Shown here in pieces: positions 45,357 to 51,291 of a stretch of 64,000 nt of DNA (positions are counted from its first letter, which is position 1; each line of letters begins with the position of its first letter). Position numbers and translations under genes: made by a program. The stretch comes from Candidatus Micrarchaeota archaeon (lineage in GTDB: Archaea; Micrarchaeota; Micrarchaeia; Norongarragalinales; SBBD01): assembly GCA_016212475.1 (NCBI GenBank), contig JACRGC010000002.1:3897-67896 (forward strand), read 5' to 3'. The notes under the pieces are model-generated. The model was not told where the DNA came from, made no database searches, and saw only the letters and a program-made list of their open reading frames with translations.

Positions 45357-45777
45357 CCTTTCGGATCTTCTATTGTGCTTTATTTGCATTTCAGTATCAT
45401 TTTTAGCAAAGTTTGCCTTTAACTTTGCGTGTTTTGATACTTTGTACATTTGATTAGGCTATTCCGGAGTCCATTTACATAGGGACATGAATCTCATTAT
45501 TTAGTATACTGAACAATAGTTCGTACTTTCATTCACTATGTAATGCCAAAATAGGCAAAAAGCGAAATATTCCTCTGGCTTTCTAATTTCGGTTACTCTT
45601 AAGAGGGTCAAAAATGCCTTGTTTTCCCCTTTTATGAAGGGGCAAAGTTACCGCACATTTTGAATTTGAATGTAAGGCAACTTTTGTTTTTACGAACAAT
45701 AGCAGGTAACCCCACGGAAACTAATGGCTCACTATATTTGTGGAGTTAATGATGGTAACGTAACTGTAACGTTAACC

Positions 45778-45813
45778 TTTACCACACATTAACGGTCAAG
45801 AATGTGTGGTAAA
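45778..45813. repeat. Perfect 13-bp inverted repeat directly downstream of tRNA-Asp
   Basis: TTTACCACACATT-N10-AATGTGTGGTAAA. Confidence 0.8.
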
Positions 45814-45817
45814 ATCA

Positions 45818-46101
45818 CGCCTTGGCCGGGATTTCCTTGCCTGAAATTGGCGGAGCCGCAAAATCCTTTCTTTGGCGGAGCCACACGCCTTTCAATCAAA
45901 ACTATTTTTGATGAACCTTTTTTGAAAAAGGTTCAAAGAAAGGCAAGGCATTCGGACCCGGGTCAAGGGCTGTTTGTTAAACCGTTTTCTTCGATTCGAA
46001 AAAACTCACTTCCTTTTCTTTTTCCGAAGCGCTTTTTCTTTTCGAGAAAAGAAAAAGGTTTAGCGACAAGCCCCTATGCTGGACCACTACACTACCAAGG
46101 C
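45818..46101 (-). tRNA. tRNA-Asp(GTC) with two introns: 37/38 (46063-45972, 92 nt) and 59/60 (45950-45832, 119 nt)
   Basis: Spliced: GCCTTGGTAGTGTAGTGGTCCAGCATAGGGGCTTGTCG|AGCCCTTGACCCGGGTCCGAA|TCCCGGCCAAGGCG. Strict BHB at 37/38 (TTGT/ACAA, outer TAAACC/GGTTTA); relaxed BHB in the T-loop (TCC/GGA). Confidence 0.93.
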
Positions 46102-46220
46102 ATCTAAGGCTATTTCTTTGGGAAGCAACAAATAAAAAGGACTCGTTGGCGCAAAATCAGGTTGGCTTAATGGGCAAATTTGGTTGCTGTCAAAATCAAT
46201 CAACCCCAAAATAAGTCAAA

Positions 46221-46619
46221 TCAATTCTGCAAAAGTTTTTCCGCAAACTCTTCAAGTGCAGAATCTTCCTGCTCCTTGCTGGCTTCAAACATGATGAAGC
46301 CATCGCGTATGTTGTTTATTGCAAAGTAGAATAGAAAAATTATAAGCCCTGCAAGAAGGGGGTAAAGATACCTTGCAATATCCGGAATCCTTTCGGCAAA
46401 ATAGCCGTATAATACCGCAAGAAGAGTCGCAAGTGAAAAAATTACCGAAAGCACAATTGCCCCAATTGTCATCCTTCCAAACCCCTGGATTGAATTGGCT
46501 CCGGAAGCAGTGCGCAATACGTCCATGTTTTCCCGGATTTTTTGCCTTGTAATTATTTTTTGGGAAGGAGCTTGTGGAGCTATTAGCTGCCTTCTTTGAG
46601 ATTCGGGTGTTATTGCCAT
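46221..46619 (-). CDS. Membrane protein, 2 TM
   Basis: 132-aa ORF between two tRNA genes with two hydrophobic helices. Confidence 0.7.
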   Translation of the reverse strand: MAITPESQRRQLIAPQAPSQKIITRQKIRENMDVLRTASGANSIQGFGRMTIGAIVLSVIFSLATLLAVLYGYFAERIPDIARYLYPLLAGLIIFLFYFAINNIRDGFIMFEASKEQEDSALEEFAEKLLQN

Positions 46620-46670
46620 GAATTGGTAAATGCAAGGCTGCTTATAATTATTGCGAAAAGAAGAAGAAAA

Positions 46671-46973
46671 TCCCGCAGGCCAGAATTCCAGAATTTAATG
46701 AATTCGCCACAAAAACGTTTTCTTTTGTAGCGACCCTACTTTTCTTTTCGAAAAGAAAAGCCGGGTCGTTTGAACTGGCAACCGTCTGATATCTGGCAGG
46801 CGATTCGACTTCATGTGAAGTCAGCCGAACTACAGTTTCGTCATACCCTTTCTTTTTTTCCAAGGTTAGCGCATACGCAAAGGGCAAATTCCCTTTTTCT
46901 TTTCCGAAGCGCTTTTCTTTTTTGGGAAAAAGAAAAGGTTTGCAGACGCTCAGCCAGATTGAGCTACTGCGGG
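46671..46973 (-). tRNA. tRNA-Tyr(GTA) with three introns: 30/31 (46942-46837, 106 nt), 37/38 (46829-46791, 39 nt), 59/60 (46768-46685, 84 nt)
   Basis: Spliced: CCCGCAGTAGCTCAATCTGGCTGAGCGTCTG|ACTGTAG|ATCAGACGGTTGCCAGTTCAAA|TCTGGCCTGCGGGA. C1:G72 and A73 archaeal Tyr identity; BHB central helices CGTC/GACG, CTG/CAG and TTCA/TGGA. Confidence 0.93.
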
Positions 46974-47114
46974 ATAGTATTCATTTGCAGAAGGATATTT
47001 TTAAATGTATCAAATATGCCCTCGGATTTTGCCGCTTAATTCTTATCCTCCCCGTGCGTTTTTTTGGTTAAGTTTATAAATACTTTATGAGTAATGACGA
47101 ACAAGGTTGATCAC

Positions 47115-48608
47115 ATGACCATTAATTTCCGTTTTATTGGGCTATTTTTCTTGCTATTGATTGCAGTTGCCTCTTTTGCGCATGCAGCGGATAAAACCGT
47201 TGATTCCGAAGCGCGCAAATACGTTTTGAAGGGCGAATCGGCGTCATATTTGATTTTAGCCAACATCACCGGAGGAAAAACCTACTATGTCGTGCAAATT
47301 GATGAGAAAAATTCATTTGTTTTTGATGAAAAGATAAACCCTGTGCTTGATGAGTCGATTCTTCTTGAAGTGCTAAAGGAATATTACAAGCAAAGCGGAG
47401 CAACTGGCTTTACTGAAAACAGCAAAACCGAATTACTCTCCAAATTCAACCAATCAGATGCGCTGTTCAACGCTTGCCACTATGAGTTTTACGAATTCGT
47501 TGAGACGAATTTCTTCTGGGCGCAGTTCAGATGCGTTGATGCTTCAACCGGCAAGGTTTGCGATGCCGCTTTTGCGCAAAGGAAAAGATGGAAGGATGCC
47601 TGGGAAATTTACCGAGAAAAAATACAGCTTTTGAAAACCGCTGCCTCCAAGTCGGAAACCGTGTCCGCACTTGAGCAGATTGAAACTGCTGCAAAGAAAG
47701 CAAAAAATGAAACATTATTCATGGATACCCCGGGCGGTTTTGAATACTTCCTTGGAAAGCCGATGAGCGAGGAAAACAAGTGCTTGTTCCAATACGGGCT
47801 TGTTGATGATGTGATTGCGCTTTCAGCGCCCGCAATGAGGAACAAAATCACCGATATCAATACCGAAGCAAAAGAACTAATCAATATCTACAATTCAAGG
47901 AAGGATGTTGTAAAAGTCAAGGAGCTTCAATCTGAAGGCGCAACCGTATTGCAAAAGGCGGTCAATGCAACCGATTTCATTCGAATCAAGTTCGGGCCAA
48001 CCGACCAAAAATTCAAGGAAATTGAAGCCTCCTATGAAAAACTTAGGAGTGCAACCACTTTAGAATTAGCTTCAAAGAATTTCAATGACATGAAAACCAA
48101 ATATGATGAGCTCCAAAGCATAATCAACAACCCGGAAGGGCTGCTTTCGACTTACAACCGGACTTTTACCAACATAAATGCAGCTGAAATTGCAATCGAA
48201 GCTTCCAAGAAAAAATACGGAAACAATGACGATCGCGTGATCAAGATGAGCAATGAGCGCATCGAGCTTTCAAACCAGCTTGGAGCAATTGACAAGCGGA
48301 TGGCAAACAACTCGGTTGTCACTGCAAAGGAAATCAAGGAAATCGGCGACAAAGCTGAAAATCTCAAGAACCGGGCGCTTGGATTGCCATCAAAGCAAAA
48401 CGAGCTTGATCTTTCAGTAATTGCCGCAATTGTTGTGATTGTAGTTGCAATTATCGGCGTAATTCTGATGAAAAAAAGAAAATCTGGCGGCAATCACAAG
48501 GAAGTTAGCATAAAGGATGTGATGGGCTCTGGAACCGAAAAAAGGCAGCTCGAGCGCGAAAAGGTCGACGAGTCGCAAAACAGGAAGGCGATGTTCCCCA
48601 AGCTATGA
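47115..48608 (+). CDS. Exported coiled-coil protein with C-terminal TM anchor
   Basis: Signal peptide ending AHA, helical body with four Cys, TM followed by KKRK; start 47094 or 47115. Confidence 0.8.
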   Translation: MTINFRFIGLFFLLLIAVASFAHAADKTVDSEARKYVLKGESASYLILANITGGKTYYVVQIDEKNSFVFDEKINPVLDESILLEVLKEYYKQSGATGFTENSKTELLSKFNQSDALFNACHYEFYEFVETNFFWAQFRCVDASTGKVCDAAFAQRKRWKDAWEIYREKIQLLKTAASKSETVSALEQIETAAKKAKNETLFMDTPGGFEYFLGKPMSEENKCLFQYGLVDDVIALSAPAMRNKITDINTEAKELINIYNSRKDVVKVKELQSEGATVLQKAVNATDFIRIKFGPTDQKFKEIEASYEKLRSATTLELASKNFNDMKTKYDELQSIINNPEGLLSTYNRTFTNINAAEIAIEASKKKYGNNDDRVIKMSNERIELSNQLGAIDKRMANNSVVTAKEIKEIGDKAENLKNRALGLPSKQNELDLSVIAAIVVIVVAIIGVILMKKRKSGGNHKEVSIKDVMGSGTEKRQLEREKVDESQNRKAMFPKL

Positions 48609-48726
48609 AAAGGCACTTCTTTTTGCTTTTTTTATTTTTTCTTCTTTTCTTGTGTTTACCTATTTTTTTTGTTTTTCAATTGCCCAATTAGGGTTAAAAA
48701 TATCCGCATTCCTATTATTTGCCTAT

Positions 48727-48961
48727 GCAGGGGTGGCAGAGCTTGGTCAAATGCGCAGGGCTTAGGTGAGCCTTTTTCTTTCACGAAAGAAAAAGCTTCG
48801 GGAAAAAGAAAGGTTTCTTAGAAACCCTGTGCCTTAGGGCTGCGAGGGTTCAAACGCCTTGCCTTTCTTTTGTAAAAGAAAGGCGTATGGCGCCGCCAAA
48901 GAAAACAAATTAGCGGCTCCGCCGATTTTGTTGGCAAGGCATGAAAATCCCTTCCCCTGCA
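48727..48961 (+). tRNA. tRNA-Leu(TAG) with two introns: 37/38 (48767-48823, 57 nt) and 59/60 (48855-48947, 93 nt)
   Basis: Spliced: GCAGGGGTGGCAGAGCTTGGTCAAATGCGCAGGGCTTAGG|ACCCTGTGCCTTAGGGCTGCGAGGGTTCAAA|TCCCTTCCCCTGCA. Long variable arm, A73; BHB helices CTTA/TTAG and TTCA/TGAA; T-tract follows. Confidence 0.94.
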
Positions 48962-49053
48962 TTTTTTTAATTTTATTGAATCAGAAGTCTTTTTAAACTC
49001 CATTTGCGATTTAATTTAACAAATGTCTAACTAGTGTTCGGCTGTTGACGATT

Positions 49054-51291
49054 ATGTCTGGAAACGGAAATGGATTGTCCAAGGAAGGCAGGAAAAAGCT
49101 AATGGATCTAGCGAAGCGCATAGTCATAAAGGTTGGGTCTAATGTCCTAACAACCCCTGAAGGCAAGCTGGATTTGAACAAAATGATGGAAATAGCCGAA
49201 ATTGTTTCAAAACTTAAAGAGCAAGGAAAGCAGGTAATTTTGGTCTCATCCGGAGCAGTTGCTGCTGGAAAAATGAGGCTTGGGCTAAACGGAGGGGATC
49301 TGAAAAAACTTACCCTTGGGATGCAGCAATCCTCCGCTGCAATTGGTCAATCCATTTTAATGGAGCATTACAACAATTTCTTTGCAAAGCATCATCAAAT
49401 CGCAGCCCAGTTGTTGCTGACTCCTGAGGATTTTGCTGATGAACTTCGCCATGCAAATGTCCAAAGCACACTTGATATGCTCCTTTCACTGAATGCAGTC
49501 CCAATTGTCAATGAAAACGATCCGGTTTCAGTTGATGAGCTTGGGATTTGCCTTCTTCCTGAAGAAACCCTTTCGGAAAAGATGAAACTAGCTCTTAAAA
49601 ACAAGGGAATTTACCTTGAAAAGTGCCTCCCCGGGCAAAAAGTTTTCGGCGACAATGACATGCTATCCGCCCTAGTTGCAAAAACCGTTTCTGCTAACCT
49701 ATTGGTGCTTTTATCGGATGTTGATGGGCTTTATACCTGCAATCCAAAAGGCGAAAATGCGAACGCTGCAAGGCTGATTGATCACGTGCTGGAAATAGAT
49801 GAGGATATGGAAAAAATGGCAGCAGCTGATTGCGGCGATAACGGAAGGGGCGGAATGGCAAGCAAAGTAAAGGCGGCAAAATATGCAGCATCCCATGGGA
49901 CTCCGGTGATTATTGCAAATGGCAAAAATCAGGTTATGCTTCCAAAACTTTTCCAAGGGGAGCGCGTTGGCACATTTTTTGAAACCAAGCAGTACGCCGA
50001 GGAAAAAACACTTGAAGGAAAGAGGGATGTTAGGGAAAAACTTACCCCCAAGCTAACTGCTGCAAAAAATTCAACAACCGTTCTTGGCATCATGGCAGAC
50101 AAGGAAAAAAACGAGGCCCTATTGGTCCTTGCAAAGGCTATCCGGGCTTATTCGCCCGATATTTTAGCCGCCAACCAGTTGGACGTTGATGCCGCAAAAA
50201 GAAAGGGCGTTAAGGATTCCCTAGTCGACCGACTTACACTAAATGCAAACCGCATAGAAGAAATGGCCAAAATGTGCGAGTTTGTTTCATCCCTAAAAGA
50301 TCCGGTCGGAGAAAAAATGGATAATTGGGCCGTAAAAAGCGGGCTTAACATTTCTAAAATCCGGGTGCCAATTGGGGTAATCGGCGTGATTTACGAATCC
50401 AGGCCAAATGTGACGGTTGATTCGGTTGCGCTTTGCTTAAAATCCGGCAATGCAATAATTCTAAAAGGCGGCAGCGACGCCCTAAATTCAAATATTGCAA
50501 TTGTAAAAATTGTCAGGCAAGCGCTTAGGAAAACCAAAATCCCAGAAGAGGCGGTGCAATTTTTAGACGGTGGACGGGAGGAAGCTAATGAACTGATGAA
50601 GGCTAGCAGCTATGTTGATTTGATTGTCCCTCGTGGCGGAGCTAATTTGATTGATACGGTTAGGAAAAATTCGGTTGTCCCAGTGCTTGAAACCGGCGTT
50701 GGGAATTGCCATATTTATGTCGACAAGGAAGCGGATTTGGAAATGGCAAGGAAAATCGTTCTCAATGCAAAATGCCAGCGCCCGGGCACTTGCAACGCCG
50801 CTGAAAAACTCCTAATTCACAAGGATGTTGCCGCTTCATTCCTTCCAAATGTTGCAAAAGAGCTCCATGAAAGGAAAGTCGAACTTAGGTGCGATAAGGA
50901 GAGCATGAAAATCCTTGAGAATTCTAAAATCCCCCTCAAACTTGCTACGGAGGAGGATTGGAAAATGGAATATCTTGATCTTATTATGGGGATAAAAATT
51001 GTAAATTCGCTTGAAGAGGCCATTTTGCACATAGGCAAATACGGAACCAAGCATTCTGAAGCAATCATCACAAAAAACAGCGCCTCATCAACCAAATTCA
51101 TGAAGGAAATTGATGCAGCTGCCCTTTACCATAACGCTTCCACAAGATTCACGGATGGCTCGGAATTCGGGTTTGGGGCGGAAATTGGAATAAGCACGCA
51201 AAAGCTCCATGCAAGGGGCCCAGTTGGCCTTCGGGAATTGACCTCTTATAAATATTTGATAGAAGGCGCAGGCCAAGTGCGCGGCGGCTGA
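49054..51291 (+). CDS. proBA: Fused glutamate 5-kinase and gamma-glutamyl phosphate reductase (P5CS-like ProBA)
   Basis: KVGS, SSGAV, NEND..FGDND, GGM.SK, then without stop or PUA domain YESRPNVT, PRGG, GNCH, CNAAE, STRFTDG.EFG.GAEIGIST. Confidence 0.95.
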   Translation: MSGNGNGLSKEGRKKLMDLAKRIVIKVGSNVLTTPEGKLDLNKMMEIAEIVSKLKEQGKQVILVSSGAVAAGKMRLGLNGGDLKKLTLGMQQSSAAIGQSILMEHYNNFFAKHHQIAAQLLLTPEDFADELRHANVQSTLDMLLSLNAVPIVNENDPVSVDELGICLLPEETLSEKMKLALKNKGIYLEKCLPGQKVFGDNDMLSALVAKTVSANLLVLLSDVDGLYTCNPKGENANAARLIDHVLEIDEDMEKMAAADCGDNGRGGMASKVKAAKYAASHGTPVIIANGKNQVMLPKLFQGERVGTFFETKQYAEEKTLEGKRDVREKLTPKLTAAKNSTTVLGIMADKEKNEALLVLAKAIRAYSPDILAANQLDVDAAKRKGVKDSLVDRLTLNANRIEEMAKMCEFVSSLKDPVGEKMDNWAVKSGLNISKIRVPIGVIGVIYESRPNVTVDSVALCLKSGNAIILKGGSDALNSNIAIVKIVRQALRKTKIPEEAVQFLDGGREEANELMKASSYVDLIVPRGGANLIDTVRKNSVVPVLETGVGNCHIYVDKEADLEMARKIVLNAKCQRPGTCNAAEKLLIHKDVAASFLPNVAKELHERKVELRCDKESMKILENSKIPLKLATEEDWKMEYLDLIMGIKIVNSLEEAILHIGKYGTKHSEAIITKNSASSTKFMKEIDAAALYHNASTRFTDGSEFGFGAEIGISTQKLHARGPVGLRELTSYKYLIEGAGQVRGG

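Follow-up and report, generated by a model that had tools for sequence, protein, structure and literature searches.

A 64-kb stretch of DNA from a very small groundwater archaeon of Candidatus Micrarchaeota (hereafter the window, situated on contig C6 of the genome called G000) contains three tRNA genes, tRNA-Asp(GTC), tRNA-Tyr(GTA) and tRNA-Leu(TAG). The three, from a DPANN archaeon of the Micrarchaeota type, are very probably functional, single-copy and interrupted by seven introns that are protein-spliced at bulge-helix-bulge (BHB) motifs. The G000 assembly comprises 1.37 Mb in 17 contigs and is rated 91.6% complete. An earlier reading of the sequence (the original prediction) proposed that the Asp gene with two introns, the Tyr gene with three and the Leu gene with two could be rebuilt as full cloverleaves, and this was borne out at the predicted places: ARAGORN called all four in-silico spliced sequences (Leu, Tyr and two Asp junction variants) as full-length tRNAs. 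The genes and their introns are as follows; coordinates without a contig name use window numbering, and the Y-R1-R2 module is a three-tract sequence element described further on.

46101-45818, minus strand: tRNA-Asp(GTC) gene, 284 nucleotides (nt), three exons giving a 73-nt product; called by ARAGORN as full-length tRNA-Asp(gtc)
46101-46064, 45971-45951 and 45831-45818, minus strand: exons of tRNA-Asp(GTC)
45972..46063, minus strand: Asp intron 1, 92 nt, at 37/38, with a Y-R1-R2 module at 46009-46058
45832..45950, minus strand: Asp intron 2, 119 nt, at 59/60 in the T-loop
46973-46671, minus strand: tRNA-Tyr(GTA) gene, 303 nt, four exons giving a 74-nt product; called by ARAGORN as tRNA-Tyr(gta)
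46973-46943, 46836-46830, 46790-46769 and 46684-46671, minus strand: exons of tRNA-Tyr(GTA), of 31, 7, 22 and 14 nt
46837..46942, minus strand: Tyr intron 1, 106 nt, at 30/31, with a Y-R1-R2 module at 46889-46938
46791..46829, minus strand: Tyr intron 2, 39 nt, at the canonical position 37/38
46685..46768, minus strand: Tyr intron 3, 84 nt, at 59/60
48727-48961, plus strand: tRNA-Leu(TAG) gene, 235 nt, whose three exons join to an 85-nt product that has a long variable arm; called by ARAGORN as tRNA-Leu(tag)
48727-48766, 48824-48854 and 48948-48961, plus strand: exons of tRNA-Leu(TAG)
48767..48823, plus strand: Leu intron 1, 57 nt, at 37/38, with a Y-R1-R2 module at 48771-48813
48855..48947, plus strand: Leu intron 2, 93 nt, at 59/60

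As had been predicted, the introns, of 39-119 nt, make up most of each gene (64% of Leu, 74% of Asp and 76% of Tyr), and Asp, Tyr and Leu all have a 59/60 intron in the T-loop. The spliced products carry C1-G72 and A73 in Tyr, G73 and G10-U25 in Asp, and A73 with the long variable arm in Leu, which we take to be identity features fitting these three tRNAs. CCA is encoded by none of the genes. All exons of a gene are collinear on one strand within 235-303 nt. Two other kinds of interrupted gene were considered and ruled out: split or permuted tRNA genes, since the exons are neither on separate loci nor permuted, and self-splicing group I or group II introns, given that the introns are just 39-119 nt and have no Rfam match at the gathering score.

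The expectation that standard annotation would miss these genes proved correct. ARAGORN found no tRNA gene in the 64-kb window, and Rfam gave no match there at the gathering score; with E values up to 10 over 45600-49100, Rfam gave 11 weak matches, none of them to a tRNA. Neither was a second Asp, Tyr or Leu(TAG) gene, intron-free or otherwise, found in the assembly with ARAGORN -i (26 calls genome-wide), the Rfam tRNA model (27 matches, 19 of them over the cut-off) or blastn of the spliced products.

The original prediction placed every junction in a BHB-like motif at 30/31, 37/38 or 59/60, and at the junction that preserves the product all seven introns do have the canonical geometry, with two 3-nt bulges, a central helix of 4 bp and an outer helix. 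Four introns have a fully paired (4/4) central helix, and in the other three it is 3/4 paired. Asp intron 1 forms a perfect helix-bulge-helix-bulge-helix (hBHBh') motif with 5/4/5 pairs, Tyr intron 3 has a 4/4 central and a 5/5 outer helix, the central helices of Tyr intron 1 and Leu intron 2 are likewise 4/4, and that of Asp intron 2 is 3/4. On a 10-point BHB scale the introns score, in order, 10 and 7 (Asp), 8, 9 and 9 (Tyr), and 9 and 8 (Leu). Among 200,000 random junctions in the window spanning 39-119 nt, a score of at least 7 was reached by 5.3%, at least 8 by 1.5%, at least 9 by 0.23% and 10 by 0.015%. The anticodon-loop junction of Asp is placed at 37/38, with A38, because the perfect BHB lies there and an intron-less ortholog agrees; a junction at 38/39 was rejected.

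The cloverleaves were first built by eye in a region rich in low-complexity A/T-rich tracts, and they could be chance reconstructions or assembly artefacts. A purpose-written split-tRNA finder, in which an acceptor stem of 7 bp, a D-arm and a T-arm are obligatory, at most three introns are permitted and a BHB filter is applied, recovered precisely the Asp, Tyr and Leu loci from a 4.5-kb test stretch. On the whole of G000 it returned 61 loci, of which 31 were passed by ARAGORN and the other 30 were discarded, while on a mononucleotide-shuffled genome it returned 10 loci and ARAGORN passed none. Moreover, the same genes occur in the same order, with Tyr next to Asp, in no fewer than 12 related genomes, each assembled independently. 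A chance or artefactual origin is thus hardly credible, and is refuted as far as sequence evidence can refute it.

Comparison with orthologs provides the strongest line of evidence for the predicted junctions. The window region was searched by BLAST against 40 relatives, and the syntenic loci were aligned to the predicted mature tRNAs with long gaps allowed. Rows with no real match were left out (L009 and L010 for Leu, L030 and L031 for Asp, L032 and L033 for Tyr); the Leu locus of G023 (L012) aligned poorly (70/85), and the Asp genes of G005 and G010 are cut by contig ends. Spliced alignment replaced the finder for this purpose, some of the relatives' Tyr genes having been misassigned by it (to Thr, Ser and others). 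The intron complements are listed by gene and genome.

Leu(TAG), G000: no D-loop intron, 57 nt at 37/38, 93 nt in the T-arm (59/60); reference product
Leu(TAG), G003 (same genus): 48 nt in the D-loop, 57 nt at 37/38, none in the T-arm; 85/85 match
Leu(TAG), G004 (same genus): 21 nt in the D-loop, none at 37/38, none in the T-arm; 84/85 match
Leu(TAG), G005 (same genus): 36 nt in the D-loop, 109 nt at 37/38, 30 nt in the T-arm; 79/85 match
Leu(TAG), G001 (same genus): 42 nt in the D-loop, 19 nt at 37/38, 94 nt in the T-arm (59/60); 83/85 match
Asp(GTC), G000 and G004: introns at 37/38 and 59/60
Asp(GTC), G003 and G006 (congeners): intron at 37/38 alone
Asp(GTC), G008 (other genus, same family): no intron; 72/73 match to the spliced product, confirming A38
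Asp(GTC), G013 and G026: no intron
Asp(GTC), G007 and G009: intron at 37/38 alone
Asp(GTC), G027: introns at 37/38 and 59/60
Asp(GTC), G037: intron at 59/60 alone
Tyr(GTA), G000, G003, G004, G005 and G006 (same genus): three introns
Tyr(GTA), G007-G010 (same family, other genera): two introns, at 30/31 and 37/38, with the T-loop uninterrupted
Tyr(GTA), G013, G037, G029 and G020 (other families): one intron, at or beside 37/38, with 30/31 uninterrupted

Five genomes of one genus thus hold five different intron complements in Leu(TAG), and the Leu sequences of G003 (at 59/60) and G004 (at 37/38 and 59/60) run without a break across exactly the predicted junctions. The Leu gene of G026, G038 and G028, which belong to other families, has the 37/38 intron alone. 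The Asp 37/38 intron measures 91-93 nt in G003, G004, G005 and G006, and the 59/60 intron of G004 measures 80 nt. The Tyr orthologs of four congeners match the predicted product at 72-73 of 74 positions and are interrupted at three corresponding places; within the genus the exons are almost invariant and the introns range over 31-106, 37-61 and 43-112 nt. Position 30/31 of Tyr is interrupted in all nine same-family genomes examined, and an intron at or beside 37/38 is present in all 13 aligned orthologs. Five of the seven junctions are read through in some relative (37/38 and 59/60 in both Leu and Asp, and 59/60 in Tyr), and the Tyr 30/31 junction is also read through, in more distant orthologs. 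These alignments support the view that introns have been gained and lost within the lineage, precisely at the predicted junctions. The nested distribution in Tyr looks like stepwise gain and may reflect it.

The introns also resemble one another. In blastn searches against the genome, Asp intron 2 and the T-loop intron of tRNA-Val(TAC) share 92% identity over 119 nt. Leu intron 2 has counterparts in the introns of Leu(CAG) (87% over 92 nt) and Leu(GAG), Leu intron 1 in the Ser(TGA) intron, and Tyr intron 3 in the T-loop intron of tRNA-Trp; a copy of Tyr intron 1 (94% over 51 nt) lies immediately 3' of tRNA-His. Copies of the introns are found in relatives as well. To judge from these matches, introns of different tRNA genes are paralogs. 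The original prediction of heavy intron proliferation in this lineage agrees with the paralogy and with the turnover within the genus.

It had also been argued that introns of this kind need a splicing endonuclease of relaxed specificity and that the EndA architecture should be determined. G000 has one EndA gene (contig C14; L001:1207-2412, minus strand), encoding a single 401-aa epsilon2-type polypeptide of three units, in which Pfam recognizes an N-terminal domain and two endonuclease-like stretches. Residues 26-401 align to residues 14-387 of PDB entry 4fz2 (E = 4e-127), the ARMAN-2 epsilon2 enzyme (PMC3488258, PMC12397907; here and below, published systems are taken as described in the available excerpts of the cited papers). 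Read off the alignment, the catalytic residues Y249/H264/K295 correspond to Y236/H251/K282 of ARMAN-2, and Y174/K175 of the ARMAN-specific loop to Y160/K161, residues shown to be needed in the ARMAN-2 enzyme (PMC12397907). The closest database relatives are proteins of 385-388 aa labelled Candidatus Micrarchaeota or Micrarchaeia, labels from which the analysis took its name for the lineage. The alignment supports the assignment of G000 EndA as an ARMAN-2-type (epsilon2) endonuclease of relaxed specificity. RtcB is present above the Pfam cut-off (G000:C17:50332-51668, minus strand), and an archaeal CCA-adding enzyme is present too.

From the gene anatomy, the enzyme genes and the orthologs we infer transcription, cleavage and ligation in the cell. 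Each gene would have an upstream A/T box of its own as promoter and yield a single precursor transcript. Each intron pairs with its neighbouring exon, which puts the two splice sites in 3-nt bulges on either side of a 4-bp helix; a homodimeric, three-unit (epsilon2) endonuclease would cut both bulges, and RtcB would join the exons. CCA would be added after splicing, because none is encoded. The promoter assignment is a reading by eye: putative archaeal TATA-like elements precede the Leu and Tyr genes.

48694..48703, plus strand: A/T-rich box about 25-33 nt upstream of Leu
46995-47005, minus strand: near-identical A/T-rich box upstream of Tyr

Several observations weigh against functional, spliced genes with exactly these junctions. 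The match to RtcB is divided between adjacent reading frames, one covering profile positions 1-58 and the other 47-426, which could reflect a frameshift, an assembly error or something else. Of the cloverleaf pairs, unconstrained minimum free energy (MFE) folds of the three whole precursors keep just 18/24, 17/22 and 12/22; of the scored BHB pairs they keep 4/14, 6/14 and 6/21. Since most BHB pairs are lost, the BHBs are not the thermodynamic optimum of the naked full-length RNA, and MFE folding was therefore not used as support. The introns contain T5 runs, and such runs can terminate archaeal transcription. Exon 2 of Tyr is just 7 nt long, and the finder has a lower-scoring alternative whose anticodon is TCG, with BHB scores of 7 and 6 versus 8 and 9 for GTA. 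The predicted tRNA-Asp has C55 (T-loop TCCGAAT; 45951-45956, minus strand), a position usually occupied by U. The three sequencing runs listed in the search for RNA are all of DNA, from one groundwater study, and one of the three possibly derives from the source sample.

The 7-nt exon bears on the reading that the genes are real and spliced while some junctions or the Tyr anticodon are misplaced, for example through another middle exon. Relaxed BHB rules do admit alternative two-intron solutions in the anticodon region, 39 for Leu and 4 for Tyr, the TCG anticodon among them. The solutions chosen are those with the fewest introns and the best BHB scores, intron-less orthologs read straight across the predicted junctions, and C1-G72 presumably marks a tRNA-Tyr; misplaced junctions are accordingly judged highly unlikely. 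The C55 of Asp and the DNA-only runs, together with the membership of the insertions in repeat families also found outside genes, would suit three tRNA genes killed when a small repeat inserted into them and left unspliced and unused. C55 is shared by G000 and G004, both of which have the 59/60 intron, and T55 is present in the G003, G006 and G008 alleles, which are free of this intron; C55 pairs with a G inside the BHB central helix. Against dead genes, no other gene for these isoacceptors was found in the assembly, 72-85 of 73-85 exon positions are identical across congeners where the insertions vary in length and come and go, each insertion sits in a BHB, and the matching broad-specificity endonuclease is intact. 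We regard dead genes as very improbable, and spliced, functional single-copy genes remain the preferred reading.

The regions around the three genes contain several open reading frames (ORFs). Spurious ORF calls over the genes had been anticipated, and a 101-aa ORF starting with ATG indeed runs antisense to the entire Asp gene; it matches no Pfam family and is probably spurious. Tyr and Asp are adjacent in relatives; in G000 they are separated by a 132-aa ORF, for which no Pfam family was found. The 504-aa ORF between Tyr and Leu has hydrophobic N- and C-terminal stretches and a sub-threshold Pfam match.

45802..46107, plus strand: 101-aa ORF, antisense to the Asp gene
46221-46619, minus strand: 132-aa ORF
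47094-48608, plus strand: 504-aa ORF

Interrupted tRNA genes are common elsewhere in G000. In the following genes, 59/60 introns were seen in spliced products accepted by ARAGORN.

tRNA-His: 36-nt intron
tRNA-Lys-CTT: 181-nt intron, the longest found by the finder on G000
tRNA-Met: introns of 58 and 111 nt
tRNA-Leu-CAG: 90-nt intron
tRNA-Ala-TGC: 144-nt intron
tRNA-Ser-GGA: introns of 38 and 92 nt
tRNA-Val-TAC, on contig C12: 120-nt intron
tRNA-Leu-GAG: introns of 54 nt in the D-loop and 103 nt in the T-loop
tRNA-Arg-GCG: two T-loop introns
tRNA-Trp(CCA), G000:C12:64922-65287, plus strand (L039): introns of 163 nt at 37/38 and 130 nt at 59/60
tRNA-Ile(TAT), G000:C17:19317-19721, plus strand (L040): five introns; 76-nt product accepted by ARAGORN

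The five introns of tRNA-Ile(TAT) measure 94, 92, 35, 85 and 23 nt, lie at 9/10, 29/30, 37/38, 53/54 and 59/60, and have BHB scores of 6, 10, 9, 9 and 9, respectively. Pro-GGG and Pro-TGG have 53/54 introns in place of 59/60. A rough tally gives about 40 introns in the 35 recognised tRNA genes of G000, which is a lower bound, as about ten isoacceptors were unfound. Two finder calls that passed ARAGORN were not kept as called: the 'Phe' call at C12:64922-65287 was re-read as tRNA-Trp, and a three-intron 'Thr(AGT)' call at C8:12184-11863 looks wrong. By eye, the 163-nt intron of tRNA-Trp shows C-box-like and D-box-like motifs. The tRNA-Lys(CTT), with its 59/60 intron, has C55, as the Asp product does.

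Nearly all of the long introns contain the three-tract module, which reads, from 5' to 3', a pyrimidine tract (Y), a purine tract (R1), a spacer and a second purine tract (R2). Besides the three copies in the window, it occurs at about 30 further places in G000. Y has the form CC-T(n)-C-T(m)-CC, R1 is its reverse complement and follows after 0-4 nt, and the spacer is 4-17 nt long and C-rich or G/C-rich. R2 does not repeat R1; it is its mirror image, and therefore the parallel complement of Y. Among 63 tight distinct modules, R2 fits a mirror better in 49, fits a direct repeat better in 4 and is tied in 10 (27, 4 and 5 in G000; 22, 0 and 5 at the relatives' loci). Perfect parallel-complement matches of at least 10 nt occur in 28 of the 63 modules and antiparallel ones in 3; when R2 is exchanged between modules the parallel-complement rate is 4.3%. 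The tract pattern varies by copy (5,4 / 4,5 / 5,3 / 6,3 / 1,5,4 / 2,3,4), and Y, R1 and R2 covary. This test replaced two others, a k-mer count of mirror versus direct loci (41 versus 28 at k = 7, 27 versus 11 at k = 8), which is confounded by low complexity, and a looser scan of 122 modules (58 mirror, 25 direct, 39 tie) into which unrelated tracts are mixed. RNAfold tends to pair Y with R2 in antiparallel orientation, with mismatch.

The 28 mirror modules of G000 lie mostly in or near tRNA genes: 17 inside one, 5 within 100 nt of one and 6 elsewhere. The last six comprise one in the hidden tRNA-Arg(GCG) gene, one in the 16S rRNA gene, two beside a C/D-box-like RNA and two after ORF stop codons. 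The module in the 16S rRNA gene is probably an rRNA intron; the Rfam small subunit (SSU) match spans the entire locus. The two beside the C/D-box-like RNA are identical, flank included, and are situated at two contig ends; contigs C3 and C5 probably join at this shared sequence. A terminator-like role is possible for the modules past gene ends, which lie 5-9 nt beyond the 3' ends of three tRNA genes and directly after two ORF stop codons. At the tRNA-Gln locus, the promoter and about the first 17 nt are duplicated with a module between the copies, which looks like a recombination or insertion scar.

G000:C7:296059-296109, minus strand (L035): module inside the 16S rRNA gene
C3:64050-64173 and C5:33505-33628: identical module and flank at two contig ends, beside C/D-box-like RNA
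C1:3594-3642: module past the 3' end of tRNA-His
C7:294786-294826: module past the 3' end of tRNA-Ala(TGC)
C16:19775-19819: module past the 3' end of tRNA-Arg(CCT)
C7:143624-143678 and C1:35886-35938: modules directly after ORF stop codons
G000:C14:79000-79200, plus strand: tRNA-Gln duplication with a module between the copies

The Y-R1-R2 arrangement is the one by which class II intrastrand triplex motifs are defined (PMC4666352). One may speculate that a single small mobile element of about 45-55 nt has been copied into most long introns of the genus, and that its intrastrand triplex, if formed, could drive its spread into tRNA genes; we hold this to be rather unlikely. The triplex would fold in the non-template DNA strand, or from nascent RNA on the DNA duplex, and purine-motif triplexes do not form in RNA (PMC4666352). 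Once in a tRNA gene, the element would be removed as an intron by the broad-specificity endonuclease. If true, a mobile triplex element would offer an origin mechanism for archaeal tRNA introns.

Decoding by the Asp, Tyr and Leu(TAG) tRNAs appears to depend on the removal of seven introns. An annotation that misses these genes would wrongly report an incomplete tRNA set, and may place a false 101-aa ORF on the Asp gene. Gain and loss of tRNA introns can be followed in unusually fine detail across the congeneric genomes, in which the same gene has one, two or three introns in varied combinations. The spread of protein-spliced introns can be approached concretely through the shared intron families and the conserved three-tract module.

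The gene structure itself is already known from ARMAN-2, Thermoproteales and Asgard archaea, and in the latter two the interruption is as heavy as here or heavier. New here, as not found in print, are the turnover within a genus, a five-intron gene in this phylum and the three-tract module. In the literature searches, triplex or mirror-repeat features of archaeal tRNA introns were not found among the matches listed, and the single match for Micrarchaeota tRNA introns with the splicing endonuclease concerned group I introns. The module resembles the BoxC/TMECO class II motifs (PMC4666352) in its succession of a pyrimidine tract, its reverse complement and a mirroring purine tract; unlike these G/C-rich intergenic repeats of bacterial DNA, as described there, it is A/T-rich and resides mostly in transcribed BHB introns of an archaeon.

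In Asgard archaea, introns missed by annotation, repeated gains and up to five introns per gene have been described in a 2026 preprint (10.64898/2026.10.13.758758), all of which is paralleled here. Asgard archaea belong to another lineage, and the preprint text contains none of the words DPANN, Micrarchaeota, ARMAN and T-loop. In Thermoproteales, up to three introns occur at non-canonical positions and intron transposition has been proposed (as cited in PMC3239211 and PMC4090602). G000 shares with them non-canonical introns, related introns in different tRNA genes and a broad-specificity endonuclease, and its intron paralogy corresponds in kind to the evidence on which the transposition proposal was based (as cited in PMC3239211). 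The Thermoproteales enzyme is of the (alpha-beta)2 type with a Crenarchaea-specific loop, whereas that of G000 is of the epsilon2 type with the ARMAN-specific loop, in another phylum.

The closest parallel in several respects is Candidatus Micrarchaeum acidiphilum ARMAN-2, in which 56% of tRNA genes are disrupted, with introns at 59/60 and 53/54, and whose epsilon2 enzyme cuts strict and relaxed motifs in vitro (PMC3239211). Both organisms have the same enzyme type, T-loop introns at 59/60 and 53/54, and strict as well as relaxed BHBs. The introns given as ARMAN-2 examples are short (13 nt at 59/60 and 25 nt at 37/38; PMC3239211), whereas those of the three genes described here are 39-119 nt long and others in G000 reach 181 nt. 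The same source states an archaeal maximum of three introns per tRNA gene. Unlike those of ARMAN-2 as described there, the introns of G000 fall into shared sequence families and number up to five per gene.

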